This document shows, piece after piece, positions 1 to 39,900 of a stretch of 64,000 bases of DNA. Location: positions 90,107 to 154,106 of the forward strand of contig NW_003314264.1 in NCBI RefSeq assembly GCF_000143415.4. The letters run 5' to 3'. A program made the position numbers and the translations under genes. The DNA comes from Selaginella moellendorffii (Eukaryota; Plantae; Lycopodiophyta). Under the pieces are notes generated by a model. It worked only from the letters and a program-made list of their open reading frames with translations, had not been told where the DNA came from and did not search any database. Numbering within the stretch: the stretch's first letter is position 1; each line of letters opens with the position of its first letter.

Positions 1-1
1 C

Positions 2-1762
2 TTGTCAAAGCCCGACCTAAGAGGGAAACAAGGTCGGTGGGCCAATGCCTTGGCCGAGTTTGATTGCGAAATTCTGTATAAGCCTGGGAAGAGCAACATC
101 GTGGCGGATGCGCTAAGTCGAAAAGCGAGCTTGAAGTTGGCAATATCCAGCGCAACAGCAACCTTCTGGGACGATGTGCGGACAGCATATGAGAACGATG
201 GTCTAGCACAAGAAGTGTTGCTGAGGAATCTAGAGGCGCGGGAAGCTCACCAGAGAGGTGAGCTGCCAACGGAAGAGAAAACAGGCTATGCGGAACGCAA
301 CGGACTCATTTATTACAAGCAAACGAGGGTGTATGTTCCAGAAGGGGAACTAAGGAAGGTGGCCTTAGAAGAGTGTCATGACGGACCTCTTGCGGGACAC
401 GGCGGAGTGCCCAAGACGATGGGCTTACTCAAGAGGAAGTACCATTGGCCAGATATGGCTAAGGACGTCCAAGACTATGTAAAGACATGTCCAACATGTC
501 AGCAGGTCAAAGCCGTGACTAAGGCTAGTGGGGGCTTGTTGCAAAGCATCCCAATTCCAGATCGCCCGTGGAAATGTCTTACGATGGACTTCATCACGGG
601 ACTACCCCCAAGCGAGGGGTTCGATGCGATATTCGTGGTGGTGGACCGATTTTCAAAGATGGCACATTTCATACCCACCACAATGGACGTGGATGCGGAA
701 GGTGTGGCGAAGCTGTTCTTTGAACAAGTGGTTCGAGTGCGGGGAAGGCCGGAAGAGATTATCTCAGATCGAGATAAGATCTTCACTAGTAGGTTCTGGA
801 GGACACTCCTAGAACAGTATCGCACCAAATTGAAATTCAGCACAGCCTATCACCCACAGACAGGTAATGGGTATTAAGTCAAGATTGATGGCACTAACAC
901 TTCTTGACAGACGGACAAACGGAAAGGGTGAATAGGCAGCTGGAGGATTATTTGCGATGCTATGTCTCGGGAGACCAGACCGACTGGGTAAGTCATTTGG
1001 GACTTGCGGAAATGTGTTATAACAACTCACCACACTCAAGCATCGGGGTGAGTCCATGGGAAGTCATCAATGGGCGAGCTATTGAAGGTCCTGTGGAACT
1101 CGGCGTGGCCGAGTATCATGGAGAGTTACCCGCAGTGGAGGCATTCACGGCGGAAAGACTCAACATTTGGAATCTAGTGAGGGATTCCTTGGAACGGGCT
1201 CAACAAAGGCAAACTAAGTACGCGAACCAAAAGCGTCGGGATGTGGAGTTCCAAGCTGGGGAGAAGGTGTGGCTGAACACCAAGAACCTCAGCCTACCAA
1301 GCTGGATCAGCCGAAAGTTGACCCAAAGGTAAAGACGCATGAATTCCTGTAAATGAATTGATCTTGAGTTCCTTAAGCAGGTTCGCGGGGCCTTATGAAA
1401 TTGAGGCACGAATCGGTAAAGTGGCTTACCGACTCCGACTTCCTCGAGAGATGGGGAAGATGCACCCAGTGTTCCACGTGAACTTACTCAAGCCGTACTT
1501 TGAGGATCCGCTTCGCAAGGACCAAGTGAGACCTTTACCTGAGGTTATCCAAGGGGAAGAGGAATACGAAGTCGAGGCCATCCTCAATGCGCGCAAGAGC
1601 AAGCGACAAGGACGCGAGGTGAGAGAGTTCCATGTGAAGTGGAAAGGATTTCCACACTGCGAAGCAACATGGGAACCGGAGGAGAACCTAGCGAACGCAC
1701 GAAATCTAGTGGAGGAATTTCTGCAAGGCAGAACTTTATGTACTTATGCAAAATTCAATTAA
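2..1762 (+). CDS. pol: Pol polyprotein C-terminal part (RNase H-integrase-chromodomain), spliced: join(<2..863,911..1328,1381..1762)
   Basis: ORFs 2-877, 904-1332 and 1358-1762 join in frame when two GT-AG introns are removed, giving ...STAYHPQT-D-GQTERVN... and ...KLTQ-R-FAGPYEI...; no other stops or frameshifts. Confidence 0.9.
864..910 (+). other. Spliceosomal intron 1 in the integrase core (47 nt, phase 1)
   Basis: CAG|GTAATG donor, CACTAAC branch-point match at 892-898, TTCTTGACAG acceptor; excision rebuilds GAC (Asp) of HPQTDGQTE. Confidence 0.9.
1329..1380 (+). other. Spliceosomal intron 2 just before the GPY/F motif (52 nt, phase 2)
   Basis: AAG|GTAAAG donor, TTCCTTAAGCAG|G acceptor, AT-rich; excision rebuilds AGG (Arg) of KLTQRFAGPY. 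Confidence 0.88.
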
Positions 1763-2151
1763 AAATATCAATTTGCAAAGTTGAGCAAATGGCATATGTT
1801 GGGACCCGAAGGCGCGCCAAAGGTAAGCTAATTAGCATGGGTTGGATAGGTCGACCAGGCGTAGGGCACTACGCCCGACTCCCTGCGGGGATGTCGAATC
1901 CGTAGACGTATTCTACGGAGGTTGGGTTCGAGTCCCAACCCCCTAGTAAAGCAAGGCTAGGTTCAAGTCCTGACCCTATACTAGGGCGTGGTGAGGTGAG
2001 GAGTATAGGGACACCTATATTCCGTTGTCATGGGCTCTTGGCCGGGGAGGCTAACTTAGGCACACCGCTAAGTGGGGGGATGCCCCCGGAGACATGGACA
2101 ACAAGTCGTAGGATAAAACGAGACGTTCGATGTGGGCATCGAACTTCTTCT

Positions 2152-2165
2152 ATGGGTGGTGGAGT
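2152..2165 (+). other. Polypurine tract of element A
   Basis: ATGGGTGGTGGAGT immediately before the LTR TG; preceded by the hairpin GTTCGATG-TGGG-CATCGAAC at 2125-2144. Confidence 0.75.
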
Positions 2166-3313
2166 TGTAAGGAACCGACTCCCCGAGATGTCGTAGGCTA
2201 AAGGATCCCCAAAAGCTTGACCGAAGTGACAAAGAGTTCATCGGATGGGACCAAGTCGAGGATCGAGTCCAAGACCGACTCTAGGACCGAGTTCGAGATA
2301 GAGTCCGGAATCGAGTCCGAGACCGACTCGGGGACCGAGTTCGAGTCCGAGTTCGAGACCGAGTTCGAGACGGAGTCCGAGATCCGAAATCGGGTCCAAG
2401 ACCGAGTCCGAGGTCGAGTCCGAGGTCGGGTCCGAGATCGGGTCCGAGATCGAGTCCGTGATCGAGTCCGAACCCGAATCCGAAGTCGGATCCGAAATCG
2501 GGTCCGAGATCGAGCCAGAGACTAAGTCCAAATACTAATACGGGTCAAGGGGTGAAAGCCCAAAGCGTGCGTCTCCCAGGGGGGGGGGGCTGCAGGGGGT
2601 TCCAAAAGTATAGTAGGGATAGTGAGGTCCAGGAACCAGTTTTGAAGGGACTCTCCAATTGGGCTTCCAAACCGACTTGAGGTTGGGACTGGGACCGAGG
2701 GGCCTTGGGTGGGAGTGAGCATGGACTTGGCTGGTGCCGGAGGGGCCATCCAAGGAAGTGCTCAAGAGCAGCTCCCACTCCCGAAAGGGAAACCGATTGC
2801 GGTGCTCCCGGCTCATGTGGAGTGGTGCCCCACTTGAGTACCATGCGGCTCATTGGTCCTCGCCCTTCCTAGGGGCTTGGGCCTTCCTTCGGGATGGAAG
2901 TGGGGGGCGAGAGGTACCCATACCGGGCCGCTAGGCCACGGTGTTTCGCCCCGGCGTCCCGAAGCAAGTGTTGCACTCAAGACTTGGGATTTAGAGGGTC
3001 CCATGATCAAGTCTTGTGGTACCAAGGGATGTTAGGAACCTGGAAGCTTGGTGTGCTTGGCTGCTTGTGCTTGCGGGGAGTGTAGCCGAACCTTAAGTCC
3101 AGTCTAACCCGGGGAGGGGGATTGGGAGTGATTTGGGAATCCATGGAAGGATGGCCAACACTCCGTTGCTCGTGCAGTGAGTAGCTGAAACCAAGTAGGA
3201 GCTGGTACCATAGGCAAGAACCTTGGCGAGGGAACTTAGCAAAAGCCAAGGCAGTGTTGGACGGATAGGCGAGGTAAGCTGGCAAAGTGGAAAGGAAAAA
3301 TTTGTGGCTTACA
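2166..3313 (+). repeat. 3' LTR of element A (~1.15 kb)
   Basis: Begins TGTAAG after the PPT and ends CTTACA, a 6-bp terminal inverted repeat; contains the poly-G/GTATAGTAGGGA core shared with other LTRs in the window. Confidence 0.8.
2240..2525 (+). repeat. CpG-rich tandem array in LTR U3 (6/12-bp units, consensus ~GAGTCCGAGATC)
   Basis: Direct reading: GAGTCCGAGACC / GAGTTCGAGTCC / GGGTCCGAGATC repeated. Confidence 0.9.
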
Positions 3314-4166
3314 GGAGATTTGTTAGCCCTAAGAATGGCATCTAGGCCACTCAACCTTTGCACTTGGTCCAAGTGCTCCACGTGTCTGATCCCATGACCG
3401 ACACCCCAAAGGTACCACTAATATATCAGCCTGTTACGCTAAGGCCATGCATATTTGCCTTTGTCACATTGGTGATCCAACACCACCTACATCACAGTTT
3501 CGTCTCTCAAAGACTAGGCCATCCACCCATGAGTGATCATCCCAGATCCACTCCTTAGCATCCTCAAGATGCCCGTAGACATGGGGAACAACCTTCCCCA
3601 ACATCCCTTTTTCAATCCCTACCAAGTCCCTTTCTGTCCACGGCCGTATTCGCCAACATTGCCATTGGGGTCAAGGCCCATAGGCTCGACCACTATGCCC
3701 CACTGGCCACGGGGATTTCCTTGCCACATGACTACATCCTTGGTCACCACACAAAAGGACTGCTCTTCTTCCTTTCCACAATCCGGGACCTTGGGACAAC
3801 ATTTCGGAACACTGTGGCCCTATGTGGTCCTCTTGGGTACTCTCCCCACCTTCTGCCTTTGGGTGCTCTAGCCATGGGCTTAGAGCGAGGTTTCGTTGAG
3901 CCACACCAGATATCCAAGTAGGTAGTGCCACCCATGCTTGGACTGGGAGCATCGACCATTCGATCTCTCAGGAGAACTACAGTCGGCTCTTGAACACTTC
4001 ACCAAACTTCCCTGCTTGTCTGTCCGTATTCACTCTAGCTTTGGACTCCTCAATGGAAATATCATCACCCAACACCTAGGCATAGCCTTCTTGGGTCACA
4101 CTAAGCTTTCCTTTTACTAGGGTCCAACCCCCACACTCTCCCTACTATACTGTTGGAACCCCCTTG
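3314..4166 (-). mobile_element. Truncated LTR-like relic in opposite orientation, probable insertion target of element A
   Basis: Reverse complement of 4125-4165 reads GGGGGTTCCAACAGTATAGTAGGGAGAGTG, the same core as the other LTRs; GC-rich, no credible ORF. Confidence 0.55.
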
Positions 4167-4256
4167 TAGGTTTTTTTCCCTGTATTTTCAGACTCTATAC
4201 CTTGTTTCATCTCTCTTTCCTTGTTCATTTGTCTTCTTTCTTCTCTACTATCCAGC

Positions 4257-27600: not shown

Positions 27601-30600
27601 CGTTGGAGGATCATTTGAAATATTTGGAGCTGGTATTTCAGAAGTTGCACGAACACAAATTGTATGCTAAGGAAAGTAAATGTGCTTTTGGACAATTGCG
27701 CGTAAACTTTCTCGGATATATAGTTGGTGGTGGCGTAATTGAGGTAGATCCAAAGAAGGTGGAAGTGGTGAAGTCCTGGGAAGTTCTTACTACTGTATCA
27801 AATGTTCCTTTCTCGGTTTGGTGGGATACTATTGCAAGTTTGTCCGCAATTTTGCAAGAATTGCTCTTCCGTTGACTGAGTTGACAAAGAGTAGTATACC
27901 GTTTCATTGGACACCAGCTTGTCAGCGTGCTTTTGTATGGTTGAAGGAGATCTTGATTACGGTTCCTGTTCTCAGGATCCCAGATCTTGATAAACCTTCG
28001 AAGTGTATTGTGATGCATCTGGCTATGCTATTGGTGCCGTGTTATAGCAAGATTGTGATAAAGCGGTTGCTGTTATGCTAAGGCAACATGGTTGTTCCAT
28101 TGCATTCTATTCCAAGAAGTTGGATGAAACTCAATGAAGATGGCCAATGCATGAGAAAGAGATGTTTGCTATAGTGTCGGCCCTAGAACACTGGAGACAT
28201 TACTTGGGTGGACACACTAAGGTTTATACAAATAGTAACACATTGAGCTACTTTGCTATGAAGCCTAATCTTATGCCGAAGGAGGCTCATTGGCAAGAGA
28301 AGCTTGCTAGATATGATATTGAAATCATATATAAACCTGGTAAAGACAATATTGTTTCGGATACATTGAGTTGTCAAGATCAATTCTGGGCAATATCGGC
28401 AATCAGTTCGGATTGGTTGGAGGATGTTCGGGTTTTATATAGAAGTGATCTATTGGCGAAGGCAATCTTGCACCGTGCAAAGTTGTCAAAGTAGAACTCT
28501 GGTAGCAAAGTGGCGAAAGTTGCTAATCAAACCAATGTGAAGCTTCTCTTGTTAGTTCAGGATGGGCTTATATTCTATAAGTAAGAAAGATTGTATCTTC
28601 CCTCTAAGGATCTACAGCAATTGTTTTTGTGGGAACATCATGATGTTCCGGCAGCAGAACATGGTGGAAAGCGAAAGACTTTGGCTTCGTTTAAAAAGGG
28701 ATTTTTCTAGTTTGGTATGGAGGGTGATGTAGTGGACTATGTCCGTTCTTGCCCTATATGCTAGCAATGTAAGCGTAGAACTGAGAAGCAAGCTGAAAAG
28801 TTGCAGTGCATTCCAGCATTGGCATGGCCATTTCAAAGTGTGACACTTGACTTTATCACTTACTTGCCAAAGTCTAAGGGGTGTGATACTTTGATGGTGG
28901 GTGTGGATTGGTTGTAGAAGAATCCACACTTCATTTCAACTGTGGGAATTGTAAATGCGGAACAAGTAGCAAAGCTCTTTTTCCATGAAGTAGTGTGGGG
29001 TCGTGGGCTTCCCGAAGAGATGATCTCAAATAGAGATTCAAGGTTTATGGGGAAGTTTTAGGGCATACTGTTCCAATTGTTTGGTACCAAGTTAAAGTTT
29101 AGTACAGCTTATCATCCTCAAACTGATGGGTAGACTGAACATGTGAATGCTCAAGTTGAGGATTATCTACGGTACTATGTCGTGGTGGACCAATGCGACT
29201 GGGTTGAGCATTTAGACATAGCAAAAATTTGTTATAACAACACATTTCACAACACTATTAGCTGTTCTCCATAGAAGATGCTACAAGGGAATGCTCGTGG
29301 GGTGCCTCAACAGATTGTTGTACTGAAACCAATGTCCGAAGTGTTGGTCCCGGCCGTTAAGACTTATGCGGAGCAGCTACGCCAAAGTCGGATTAGAGCT
29401 ACTGAGGCAATGGGCAAAGCTCAGGATAGGTATCGATGTGATAAGGATCAGCATCAACAGGATGTATCCTATCAAGTGGGAGATCAGGTGTGGCTATCTT
29501 CCCAGAACTTGAACATTAAGGGATCTTTATCTTGGAAGCTTTTACCGAGATATGTTGGACCCTATCGGGTGTGGAAACGACTTGGTGATGTATCCTATCA
29601 GTTGGATATTCCACAAGAGATGTCCAGACTTCATGATGTGTTTTATGTCAGTTTACTGGCCTCATATCATGAGGATTCTGGCCGCTCTAAGGATGTTTAT
29701 CCAGCTCTGGATATTATTGATGGTGAACTGGAGTATGAGGTTGAGGCTATTCTTTTGTCTCATAAGGCATGTGGCGGTCGAAGCAAAGAATATTTAGTTA
29801 AGTGGAAGGGTTACCCATCTTGTGTATCAACTTGGAAACCTCTTAGGAATCTTACACATACTTGTGAGCTTGTCACGGAGTATGAAAATCATAATAAAGA
29901 ATAGTTTTGTAAATTTTGTAATAAATCTTGCAAATCAATAAAGTAATATCTTTTTATAAATGAAAGTTTTGTTTCTCTCATTAGTACTTGGGTTAGTTTT
30001 GGCAGGCTGACTTCGGCACTTTAGTGCATGGGTTCAATCCATAACCATGGGGATAACTATTATAGACTGATCATAAATCCCCACCTCTCTCTCGATGACT
30101 CATTTTTGAAAAGGGGGTGTGGTCGTGTAAACAACTTGTGTATTGAGATTAGTCCCTTAATATTCACTAGATGATAGCTTACTGTGTTTGCCAAACACCT
30201 CGCTATCATGCTCTTTTGTGTTAGTCTCATTTCGGTCCCAAATGCTATTTATGGAAAGTGTCTAGATTCACTCATTTAGCATGTTAACAGAATGTAGAGA
30301 TTTGCCTGAACACAATGGTGTTCATCCCGTGTCCAAATTCGCAATCTAGGGACATTCCATATTTAGTAGGTTTTGAGCTTGTCCCAGAGACTAACTCCTG
30401 GTACCTGGTACTAAGGGAGGCTTGGGGTAAAAGCCCAAAGTATGTGTTCCTCAAGGGAGGGGGGGGGATGGGGGGGGGGGGCGGGGCGGGGGGGTTCCAA
30501 ATGTATAGTAGAGATAGTGGTTGCAATGCATGTCCAACCACCTGAGACATTAATTTGGCTCTCACTAGGCTATGTTGCTCCTTGTTCTTCGTTCGGCTTG

Positions 30601-36900: not shown

Positions 36901-39900
36901 CGTTATGCTTGGTGGCAAGTTCCACCTTGTATTTCGTTTAGACTCTATGAGAGTAGTGAGCTCTCACTAATCCTAACTTGGTCTTAGTGGCCCTACGCCT
37001 TAGCTAAGGATGGTGATGTCCACCTTACTTGTTTGAGTTTGAGATGTTAGTACCCATACTATAGCTTTGTCTAAGAGGAAGTTGTGTACCAATATGAGTC
37101 CATCTCATGGTCTTCACTTTAGTTTCAACTAAGTGTTGATCATGCATAGCTAGCCTCTTCAAAGCTTGTTCAGAGCTATTGGCTAAACAAGTTGGTGAGC
37201 TTATTGTGGATGAGTTGGATTTGAGTGGTCATTTAGTTTGTGCTTGTTTATGAACCTTTATCTCGTACCTGGGGTATTACGTTCATGTTGGACAAGTATG
37301 TGACTCGATGACATGAGTTTAGTGTTCGGGTCTTGTGAAGGCAAGTTGAAGGGTGATTGTTAGTTGCTTTGCGACTAGTGATTACTTATAAACTTTGCTA
37401 AGGACTGTTGACACTTGCTTCACTCGATAATGATTTAGCAGTGATGGGCTTGCTTTACCAGATGGTGTTGCGGAGGATTGTGTAGTTAAACTTATATAGG
37501 TTTTCCATGTTAGCATATCAATTCTACCTTTGTCGATATCATTTGGTGACATTTAGTCTATGGTGTTAGATTTCATTGAATCTTGGATGTGGTGATTCAT
37601 TCCTTGATGATGTGTTATTTGAAACTGAGTATTGTTGAAGGATTGGTCTCAGATACTAACTAAGGTATCTTTGACTTTGGTTAGCTTAGTTGTTAAAGAG
37701 TTTTGAGTGGTGATTCACTCATGCTTTCTTTTAGCTTTGTTATGGTGTTGATGGCATTGAAGTGATGCCTTATTGTTGACATTGTTGATATTGAGATTTG
37801 AGTGAAATGAGATATCCTTCCAAGGATTGATATTGAGTTTCATTAGTCTTGATTAAAATAGTGTTGATGATTTGGTTTCTTTGTGTTGTTGGCATTCATG
37901 CATTTGCTAGTTAGCAACTGTGTTGACGTTCAAACGAACTGAGTGGCAAGTTTGAGTTAGTTGTGTTTTAGATGCAATTGCTTAGTAGGGGTTGAGCTCT
38001 AGCTTTTCCTTAAAAAGTGATTCTGTCATTGACTATGCTAACTCTACAAGAGGAAGAGTTAGTGATCGATATTAGAATGGTTGAGTCCTTATTGGATTTG
38101 AGTTCGGGATATATCGATCATTGATGATTCTCTTTATGCTTGTTACAAAGTGAGTTACATCTTACTATAGATGGATTTATGGAGGATCATTTAGTGATCA
38201 CTTGTTGAGCATAGCATCATTGTGTTTGGCTTTTGGATTTATGCAGATATACTCTTCATTAACTTTAGCATTATGAAATTTGGCTTATGGATGTGTTGAG
38301 GAGGATATTGTGGGTTGCATCATGATTTCTTCTTTAGCATTGAAGTTAGTTCATGCAAGACTTGTGATCATTGTTAGGCATGACTTAGCTATAAGCTTCT
38401 TTGAACTTTTGGTTCCTTGAGTTTTCATGCTCAATGTTCCATTTGTTAGAAGTTGTTGGGGAATGTATTTTGGCTTTTAGCTTTGATATTGAAGTTGGCT
38501 TTTGCGTCTAGCAATCATTGATGATGATTGACTATCATCTAGGATAATTGATTATCCTTGTTGAAGGTTTTGCTTGATTATTGTTGATCTAGAATGATTT
38601 GCTATTCTTCAAGATGGTGGATTTCTTCTTAGACGATGATTCTGCATATATCTTTTTGATGGGATGATTGATAATCTTTTATGATGGTTAGTTGTTCTTT
38701 TTAATAGTTTATGGCTTTTTGAAATACCACATGTTCTTTGTGGTTTACTCTAGATTGGTCTCTTGGGTTTGAGACATCAGTAGGATGTTGCTGACATTTG
38801 CTTGAGCAACTCTAGTTCCTTAGTATTATTAGCTATGATCTATTCAGATTAGCTATTGCAATAGTTGGCATGACAAAGTGTTTGTTGGTTTTACTACATT
38901 CATTTTGTTCTATTGATTGTTACTTGAGTTAGTTCTGATAGGTTGGGATGTATTTCCTTCGGGTGATACATTTGCGAGTATTGTGCTTGTCAGTCAATGA
39001 TACTTTGTGTTCTTTGAGTTATCTTTAGTACGTTGTTTGACATACTATCTACAATCTTTGATAGTTAAGTTTTATTATTGAGTTTACTTGATGGTATATG
39101 TGCTATTGAATTTTTGGGGGATAGTGAATCCTATGTTTTCCAACCATGATGATCTTGTTAGTTTCTATATTATAATACTAGTTTATCAAATGATAACTTA
39201 CTTGGAATACTTTTGTGTTCTAATTTAAGCTTTATTCACTGATAATTAAATCTCTAGGATATCATTGTTTATGACTTTGATATAGTCCATTTATTAATCT
39301 TTGAGTTTGGGCCAATATAGGCAGACTGGCTTCGGCACTTCATATGCATGGTGAAATCTCTAGTCATGGGGTAGCTACTGTCAACTGGTCATATAACCTG
39401 CCTCTCTGTCGATGATCCTTGTTCCGTTAAAAGGGCGTGACCGTGTAAACAACTCTAACTGCCTGTTTACAGTAGTCTATCTAAACCTTACCAACTGGTT
39501 TGGTTTCTTTGCTCAGGAGGGTTGGGGCCTTTGGCTCCTCTCTCTATGTCTTTGCAGGCAGGTGTATCACACTTTTGTAGCTGGGTGACACCCAGAGCAG
39601 CAAGGGTGGCTGACTTCGTTGGTCATTTCCTTGTCGGCGACGGCCGGAAGGTGTCTAAGTTGGTAGCACATCCGCGTTAGACAATGAGGTTACTCCTAAC
39701 TCATTTAAGTTGGTGCATTTCTCACATAGTGTGAATACCGTGAACTTTTTCTGGAATTGTTTCCTTGACGGTATTCTAGACTGGAGTATGCATCGACGAG
39801 GACGTCGATCTTCCCTAGGGAGGGAGAGTGTCGCGAATGTGACTTCGGGTATCGAAAGTTACTTGTCAGCCAGTCCTTACGAACACTCTCTCCTTACTGC

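Follow-up and report, generated by a model that had tools for sequence, protein, structure and literature searches.

The window, by which we mean the whole stretch of 64,000 nucleotides that was analysed, opens inside the pol gene of an LTR retrotransposon, whose 3' non-coding region is predicted to fold into a dense block of hairpins between the pol stop codon and the polypurine tract (PPT). The encoded protein shows a Ty3/gypsy order of domains, with integrase zinc finger and core followed by an SH3 (GPY/F) domain and a C-terminal chromodomain (Pfam), and pol is succeeded by a PPT and an LTR with TG..CA ends, as in Ty3/gypsy chromoviruses. The element that carries the folded untranslated region (UTR) is a high-copy, intron-bearing Ty3/gypsy chromovirus with the following parts in the window:

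1 to 863, plus strand: pol exon with the end of the RNase H region and the integrase zinc finger and core (Pfam PF17921, PF00665; aligns with Ty3/gypsy Pol)
864 to 910, plus strand: intron 1, 47 nt, GT-AG, skipped in RNA-type contigs of X16 and X18 (858 to 906)
1329 to 1380, plus strand: intron 2, 52 nt, GT-AG, skipped in the same contigs (1326 to 1379)
1381 to 1762, plus strand: final pol exon with SH3 (GPY/F) domain and chromodomain (Pfam PF24626, PF00385)
1730 to 1800, plus strand: stretch of 75% AT around the stop, by its composition a candidate internal poly(A) region
2154 to 2164, plus strand: PPT, from its sequence and its alignment to the PPT of relatives
2166 to 3313, plus strand: 3' LTR, 1148 bp, TGTAAG...CTTACA, delimited by diverse flanks that meet before 2166 and by its terminal repeats
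2248 to 2529, plus strand: 12-bp tandem array within the 3' LTR
2579 to 2589, plus strand: G11 tract within the 3' LTR

The start of the LTR at 2166 is marked by unrelated upstream flanks in 40 DNA contigs (agreement 0.37), and at its end the CTTACA at 3308-3313 answers the initial TGTAAG. With the pol stop TAA at 1760-1762, the placement of the folded region between pol stop and PPT in the first-pass annotation is correct. The G-tract at about 2579-2589 was considered as PPT and discarded because it lies inside the LTR, and identity with GingerRoot was rejected since RNase H sequence, PPT and LTR are all present here (judged against the accessible part of PMC6839031). In one DNA run (X1) the element is very abundant, with a summed depth near 10^6, which is not a copy number. 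The two common variants in the tail of the last pol exon, at 1736 and 1753, are synonymous as judged by eye. Downstream of the 3' LTR, at 3314-4168, comes an LTR-like segment in inverted orientation, the end of which matches 2594-2627 at 91% over 34 nt; judging from this segment, the element probably landed within a different LTR belonging to a related family. The neighbouring host gene (11545-4700, minus strand) encodes a CH_2 sperm/cilia domain (PF06294) and has introns of about 48-49 nt, which suits a plant that has very small introns and sperm with flagella.

Both introns of the element are skipped at their exact lengths in X16 and X18, which come from two studies, and retained in X15 from a third; X15 to X20 were called RNA by guess, no run being recorded as RNA. 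The earlier premise of an element that retains introns is thereby upheld. Because the introns are kept in the element and skipped in RNA-type contigs, the genomic RNA must be unspliced, and the element must therefore sort two pools of RNA. Around intron 1, the coding window 751-1037 (plus strand) folds with z=-4.8 and long-range helices bracket the intron, a predicted fold that may control splicing.

Where these RNAs end is indicated by the contigs in part. Spliced contigs of X16 and X18 and a contig of X17, whose splice state is unseen, end at 1719, 1714 and 1709, ahead of the AT-rich stretch around the stop and with no loose end among those listed, and a contig of the intron-retaining X15 reaches 1876. 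This shared stop at 1709-1719 in two studies is a weak hint, which would fit a spliced mRNA that ends after pol and leaves the hairpin block to the genomic RNA; absent RNA-type cover over 1877-2123 counts as no evidence, and X19 contributed no contig. Sixty nucleotides past the pol stop stands a strong donor-like site, AAG/GTAAGC (1820-1828, plus strand). In the contigs examined there is neither splicing from this site at 1823 nor a third intron after the chromodomain, and the DNA joints seen from 1843 are single contigs beside two mismatches. By its sequence the site could bind U1 and so affect the choice of 3' end.

The block itself was analysed within the borders picked in the first-pass annotation (1858-2144), and all stems named there occur at their positions in the minimum free energy (MFE) fold:

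1858 to 1919, plus strand: hairpins H1-H3, back to back (1858-1875; 1876-1896 with one bulge; 1899-1919), pair probability 0.79-1.0 in four contexts
1920 to 1940, plus strand: T-arm 1, 7-bp stem with loop TTCGAGT (MFE fold, consensus match)
1941 to 1986, plus strand: helix enclosing T-arm 2 (inner stem 1959-1971, loop TTCAAGT at 1962-1968; MFE fold, weak here)
2000 to 2023, plus strand: H6, 10-bp hairpin, pair probability about 1.0
2024 to 2102, plus strand: multibranch domain with inner hairpins 2039-2053, 2054-2073 and 2074-2087 (MFE fold, pair probabilities)
2125 to 2144, plus strand: pre-PPT hairpin common to other chromovirus families (compensated pairs across lineages)

About nine helices thus stand back to back with almost no linkers. 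Across four flanking contexts, most of them keep a pair probability of at least 0.8. In this copy T-arm 2 and the helix around it pair weakly, at probabilities of 0.1-0.6 that vary with the flanks, and T-arm 1 drops to about 0.5 when upstream sequence is added.

The claim of dense folding is well supported. With an MFE of -128.9 kcal/mol the region folds better than all of 200 shuffles (z=-5.28), and it contains six local hairpins whose stems pair perfectly over 6 bp or more, compared with at most five in any other window of the scan (3157 windows of 287 nt that do not overlap the region, 20-nt steps). This is the highest hairpin density in the 64 kb, reached by none of 500 shuffles (mean 0.5). 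Energy alone is less distinctive, as values of z=-3.3 to -4.8 occur in coding windows of this element in a run in which the region scores -4.6; the window at 2166 and five LTR or flank windows from 2591 on lie between 0.4 and -2.4. The suggestion that G-U pairs favour a structure in plus-strand RNA did not hold, with four such pairs in the plus-strand fold and three in that of the minus strand. The minus strand folds equally well (z=-5.39 vs -5.28), and the plus strand also folds strongly as DNA (z=-7.4). Since folding is strand-symmetric, the strand can be argued from the T-loop words alone, which are in plus orientation. Just 5' of the block lie two GC-rich 8-nt palindromes on the plus strand, GGCGCGCC (1811-1818) and GGTCGACC (1849-1856), whose sequences make them possible dimer-initiation sites.

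The resemblance of the two loops to a Pol III B-box was confirmed: both match the B-box/T-loop consensus GGTTCRANTCC and are its sole two matches in the 64 kb, where 0.16 would be expected. The two belong to an old duplication of 35 nt, in which 1917-1951 and 1952-1986 are identical at 23 of 35 positions, and the T-loop core is retained in both halves at this low level of likeness. Judged from this alignment, the two T-loops are not independent, and T-arm 2 is an old duplicate of T-arm 1. The 17-nt core of T-arm 1 recurs in phage contigs: of 120 matches there, 77 fall inside a tRNA called by ARAGORN, 7-11 nt from its 3' end, with 18 tRNA types among the matches listed; the core is thus genuine tRNA T-arm sequence that is not tied to one tRNA. 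A related repeat that diverges after 1947, present as a loose end in 23 DNA contigs, forms a further T-loop hairpin by eye. This hairpin has the same T-loop core and different outer arms that nevertheless pair, and another T-loop begins after it. That pairing extends beyond the GG/CC of the B-box speaks for a hairpin more than for a site in DNA.

Searches for more of a tRNA or of a known RNA gave little. ARAGORN called no gene in the window, and Rfam returned no match, tRNA included, within 1858-2144 at E values up to 10; elsewhere in the window it gave sub-threshold miRNA and lncRNA matches. Models of self-cleaving ribozymes as in retrozymes (hammerhead, HDV and twister) had no match. A strict A-box is missing from 1781-1960, as is any plus-strand run of four or more T from 1760-2600, and a Pol III promoter, to which the earlier mention of the B-box might lead, is therefore reduced to its B-box. 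An exact 25-nt search of metagenomes gave 0 matches. A double B-box search of phage contigs found tRNA clusters and simple repeats and no relative; among 120 such loci, both boxes lay in tRNAs in three, one box in 67 and neither in 50. Several of the phage loci (L003, L004, L030, L040, L048, L059, L064 and others) contain tRNA-sized units uncalled by ARAGORN with two T-loop words 18-45 nt apart; several of these units lie near tRNA genes and some are simple repeats.

One upstream segment is predicted to compete with the first T-arm:

1798 to 1810, plus strand: segment that could pair with T-loop 1 and its 3' arm, 12 of its 13 positions being complementary (predicted alternative fold)

The alternative fold lies above the T-arm fold by 2.9 kcal/mol (MFE) or 1.8 kcal/mol (ensemble), and a long-range match of this kind arises in 6 of 300 shuffles. 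As a lead from modelling, the segment could hide T-loop 1 and act as a switch.

For variation among copies, the source was a single DNA run, in contig tables weighted by depth that give no linkage or copy number; variants were counted at 4% or more. The covariation by which the first-pass annotation proposed to judge the structure, like constraint on the stems, is not visible within the family: variants touch at least 15 of the 194 paired positions and at least 10 of the 93 that are unpaired (p=0.38 by Fisher's test, from 40 of 49 variant places), so that stems in 1858-2144 are not spared. A young family has little power to reveal such constraint. Among the variants listed, low-frequency changes are mostly CpG or CHG transitions, and CpG variants in the T-loops reach 6-8%. 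Listed paired non-CpG variants that keep the pair stand at 1937, 1942, 1972, 2002 and 2003, and both listed variants in H6 preserve pairing; those at 1977 and 2098 break or shift a pair, the latter in the multibranch stem at a position where most copies differ from this one. At 1937 and 1942 the variant letters are those found in the duplicate arm, and cross-mapping may account for them. The single double change among those listed, 1959/1971, is A-U here and G-C in most copies. It falls on CHG and CpG sites, and methylation decay therefore explains it equally well.

Relatives of the element date the parts of the UTR differently. The best protein matches are 47-53% identical, and the 80 metagenome loci fetched through them include 35 with a chromodomain match. 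All 35 are intronless at both intron sites, intron 1 being absent from relatives, and in 33 of them the stop codon stands at a small hairpin that leads through a pyrimidine tract to the PPT, without a UTR. In the stretch of up to 700 nt downstream, none of the 35 has two T-loop words (34 have none, one has one). Thirty-one of these loci align as one family, which we infer to be probably from a moss. A blastn search with the UTR gave no match in the 80 metagenome loci and short chance matches in the window. In an integrase tree of 33 rows no starred set contains the window element, and its closest kin is left unresolved.

The window contains two further elements of relevance. A sister chromovirus (28261-30125, plus strand) is decayed and intronless, with 39-46% protein identity, and its UTR of 222 nt is unstructured (z=-0.09). 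AATAAA words directly follow its stop, and one imperfect T-loop-like word lies at 30030-30040. The link between introns and a folded UTR thus compares one intron-bearing lineage with two intronless ones. The second is represented by its end:

39788 to 39836, plus strand: end of another LTR element with the same order of hairpin, pyrimidine tract and PPT, and with compensated pairs

An alignment of 12 sequences from three lineages, comprising the hairpin at 2125-2144 in this copy, its counterpart at 39788 and those in 10 among the 33 loci, shows changes on both sides in three of six pairs. Pairing is kept in 95.8% of cells, and 4 of 500 shuffles reach as many pairs. The compensatory changes that the first-pass annotation had called for were thus found across three lineages for this hairpin, but not within the family for the other stems. 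As far as these sequences tell, the last hairpin is ancient and roughly 360 nt upstream of it are lineage-specific. At 2124-2168, contigs of RNA type from X15 and X20 have the pre-PPT hairpin and the PPT in common with this element and then enter a different LTR, which suggests an expressed sibling family.

The first-pass annotation had read the region as an export or packaging signal of unspliced genomic RNA, analogous to retroviral constitutive transport elements and those of IAP and MusD. The need for unspliced RNA and the absence of the UTR from intronless relatives make a cis-acting signal of the genomic RNA plausible; in mechanism, which for those elements involves NXF1 and for the MTE a kissing loop, the analogy is weak. 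We tentatively favour, as a reading that we place just short of probable, a tag for selection or packaging in which T-arms displayed by the folded 3' non-coding region would mark the unspliced full-length RNA. The spliced pol mRNA would end near the stop codon, and only read-through genomic RNA would carry the hairpin block. Gag, possibly with a host factor that binds or modifies tRNA, would read the T-loops, and the element's proteins would take the tagged RNA into packaging and reverse transcription. The segment at 1798-1810 may hide or show T-loop 1 as a switch, and the hairpin at 2125-2144 would be a separate and much older pre-PPT element. We favour such a tag because two RNA pools need to be sorted, because the block sits where read-through RNA alone would carry it, and because a T-loop hairpin of brome mosaic virus (BMV) sets a precedent. 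On the other side, most retroelements have their packaging signals close to the 5' end, a part not included in this window. A wider scenario, in which the element that gained introns also gained a T-arm switch that licenses both export and packaging of unspliced read-through RNA only, appears doubtful to us.

The same features could instead serve nuclear export of the intron-retaining RNA through TREX/ALY/MOS11, an element-encoded adaptor or export factors that handle tRNA, which we judge unlikely. The region lies at the site of a 3' transport element, as such elements occupy the corresponding location in retroelements, and the unspliced RNA needs exporting while the intronless relatives do without the UTR. 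Exportin-t requires mature tRNA ends, but the T-arm here is internal, and no Rfam family matches 1858-2144. A structured leader of CaMV recruits TREX in plants, yet CTE, RTE and MTE act via NXF1, which plants reportedly do not use (both in the accessible passages of PMC12786077); the MTE moreover needs a kissing loop (as described in part of PMC3362945), and the longest complement between unpaired stretches here is 4 nt. Control of the 3' end or of reverse transcription seems quite improbable as the main role: the block would suppress polyadenylation near the pol stop, with U1 bound at 1823, or pace the reverse transcriptase before the PPT. RNA-type contigs do end just 5' of the region, near the strong donor-like site, the DNA fold is stable, the terminal hairpin is conserved beside the PPT, and U1 represses early termination in EVD (PMC5580714, from the text available). 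Such control leaves two canonical T-loops unexplained, however, and the contigs examined hold neither a poly(A) tail nor a joint from 1823.

That the block is neutral or nearly so, formed by inverted and tandem duplications and a captured tRNA fragment in a young, expanding family, strikes us as rather unlikely. Stems not depleted of variants, strand-symmetric folding, an element that folds well as a whole and a second T-loop explained by duplication would all be expected under neutrality. The nearly linker-free adjoining of about nine helices would not, nor would the survival of the T-loop core in diverged duplicates and in the related repeat, and constraint is hard to see in a young family. 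We regard it as highly improbable that the loops act as DNA B-boxes which bind TFIIIC, as a Pol III promoter or chromatin boundary, with folding incidental. Two exact B-box matches in one orientation, the sole ones in 64 kb, speak for it; against it stand the missing upstream A-box, T4 run and ARAGORN or Rfam tRNA, the stems that run past the box, and the literature searched, in which B-boxes inside plant LTR elements were not found.

Both structured cis-acting elements in the genomic RNA of retroelements and T-loop mimicry by viruses have precedents, and the export of RNA from plant LTR retrotransposons has not been directly studied according to the accessible part of a review (PMC12786077). 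A T-loop hairpin in the 3' UTR of an LTR retrotransposon was not found in the literature searched, outside which most subscription papers lie. The compact, lineage-specific module of two T-arms is thus a small and mutable candidate for the selection of genomic RNA in a plant retroelement, and bears on the question of whether mimicry of tRNA arose anew beyond RNA viruses. Should it be neutral, the region is merely an unusually hairpin-rich UTR.

Among described elements, the one at hand resembles SM1-Galahad of Selaginella moellendorffii (Galadriel clade, PMC3350952), with which it was compared by description only. It fits in LTR size (1076/1146 bp there, 1148 bp here), in the poly-G tract of the LTR (11-25 nt there, G11 here), in TG..CA ends and PPT, and in a split Pol: the Pol ORF of SM1-Galahad stops in the integrase and is followed by two further short ORFs, the last with a chromodomain (PMC3350952). 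These short ORFs, of 316 and 309 bp, are unlike the exons here in size, and the available sections of that paper make no mention of introns, hairpins or a UTR.

Parallels for separate handling of genomic RNA come from other retroelements. In EVD, a Ty1-copia element with shGAG RNA, splicing and early 3'-end formation likewise separate an mRNA from the genomic RNA, but its intron sits where gag ends, and Gag is the product of the short RNA (in the accessible text of PMC5580714); here the introns lie in the integrase and the short RNA would end after pol, an end that is only hinted at. The MusD MTE, IAP RTE and retroviral CTE are structured parts of LTR retroelements that serve unspliced genomic RNA (PMC12786077; PMC3362945, in the passages available), whereas T-loops are not mentioned in those passages and plants use TREX instead of TAP/NXF1 (PMC12786077). 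Neither an Rfam family match nor a kissing-loop complement longer than 4 nt between unpaired stretches marks the present region as one of them. The tRNA-like structures that confer mobility on plant mRNAs also consist of tRNA parts, with T-loops reportedly important, and reside in 3' UTRs near the gene end; they differ as full or partial cloverleaves in cellular mRNAs (from the accessible portion of PMC10226581), of which ARAGORN found none here.

A closer functional analogy is box B of BMV, which is conserved with the tRNA T-loop and required for recruitment by protein 1a (PMC4083346; PMC5869524, as far as their accessible text goes). There, an internal non-coding element of about 190-250 nt presents a T-loop stem-loop that selects RNA for replication (same sources); here, a T-loop consensus likewise sits in the loop of a predicted stem in non-coding RNA. 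The two differ in that BMV, an RNA virus, carries a single box B in each RNA and uses protein 1a, whereas the retrotransposon has two tandem T-arms. The likeness is one of working, with no shared ancestry implied, and on the side of the retrotransposon it is known from sequence and predicted fold. If true, the T-arm switch would be a convergence with the bromovirus box B and a mappable signal for the selection of genomic RNA in a plant retroelement.
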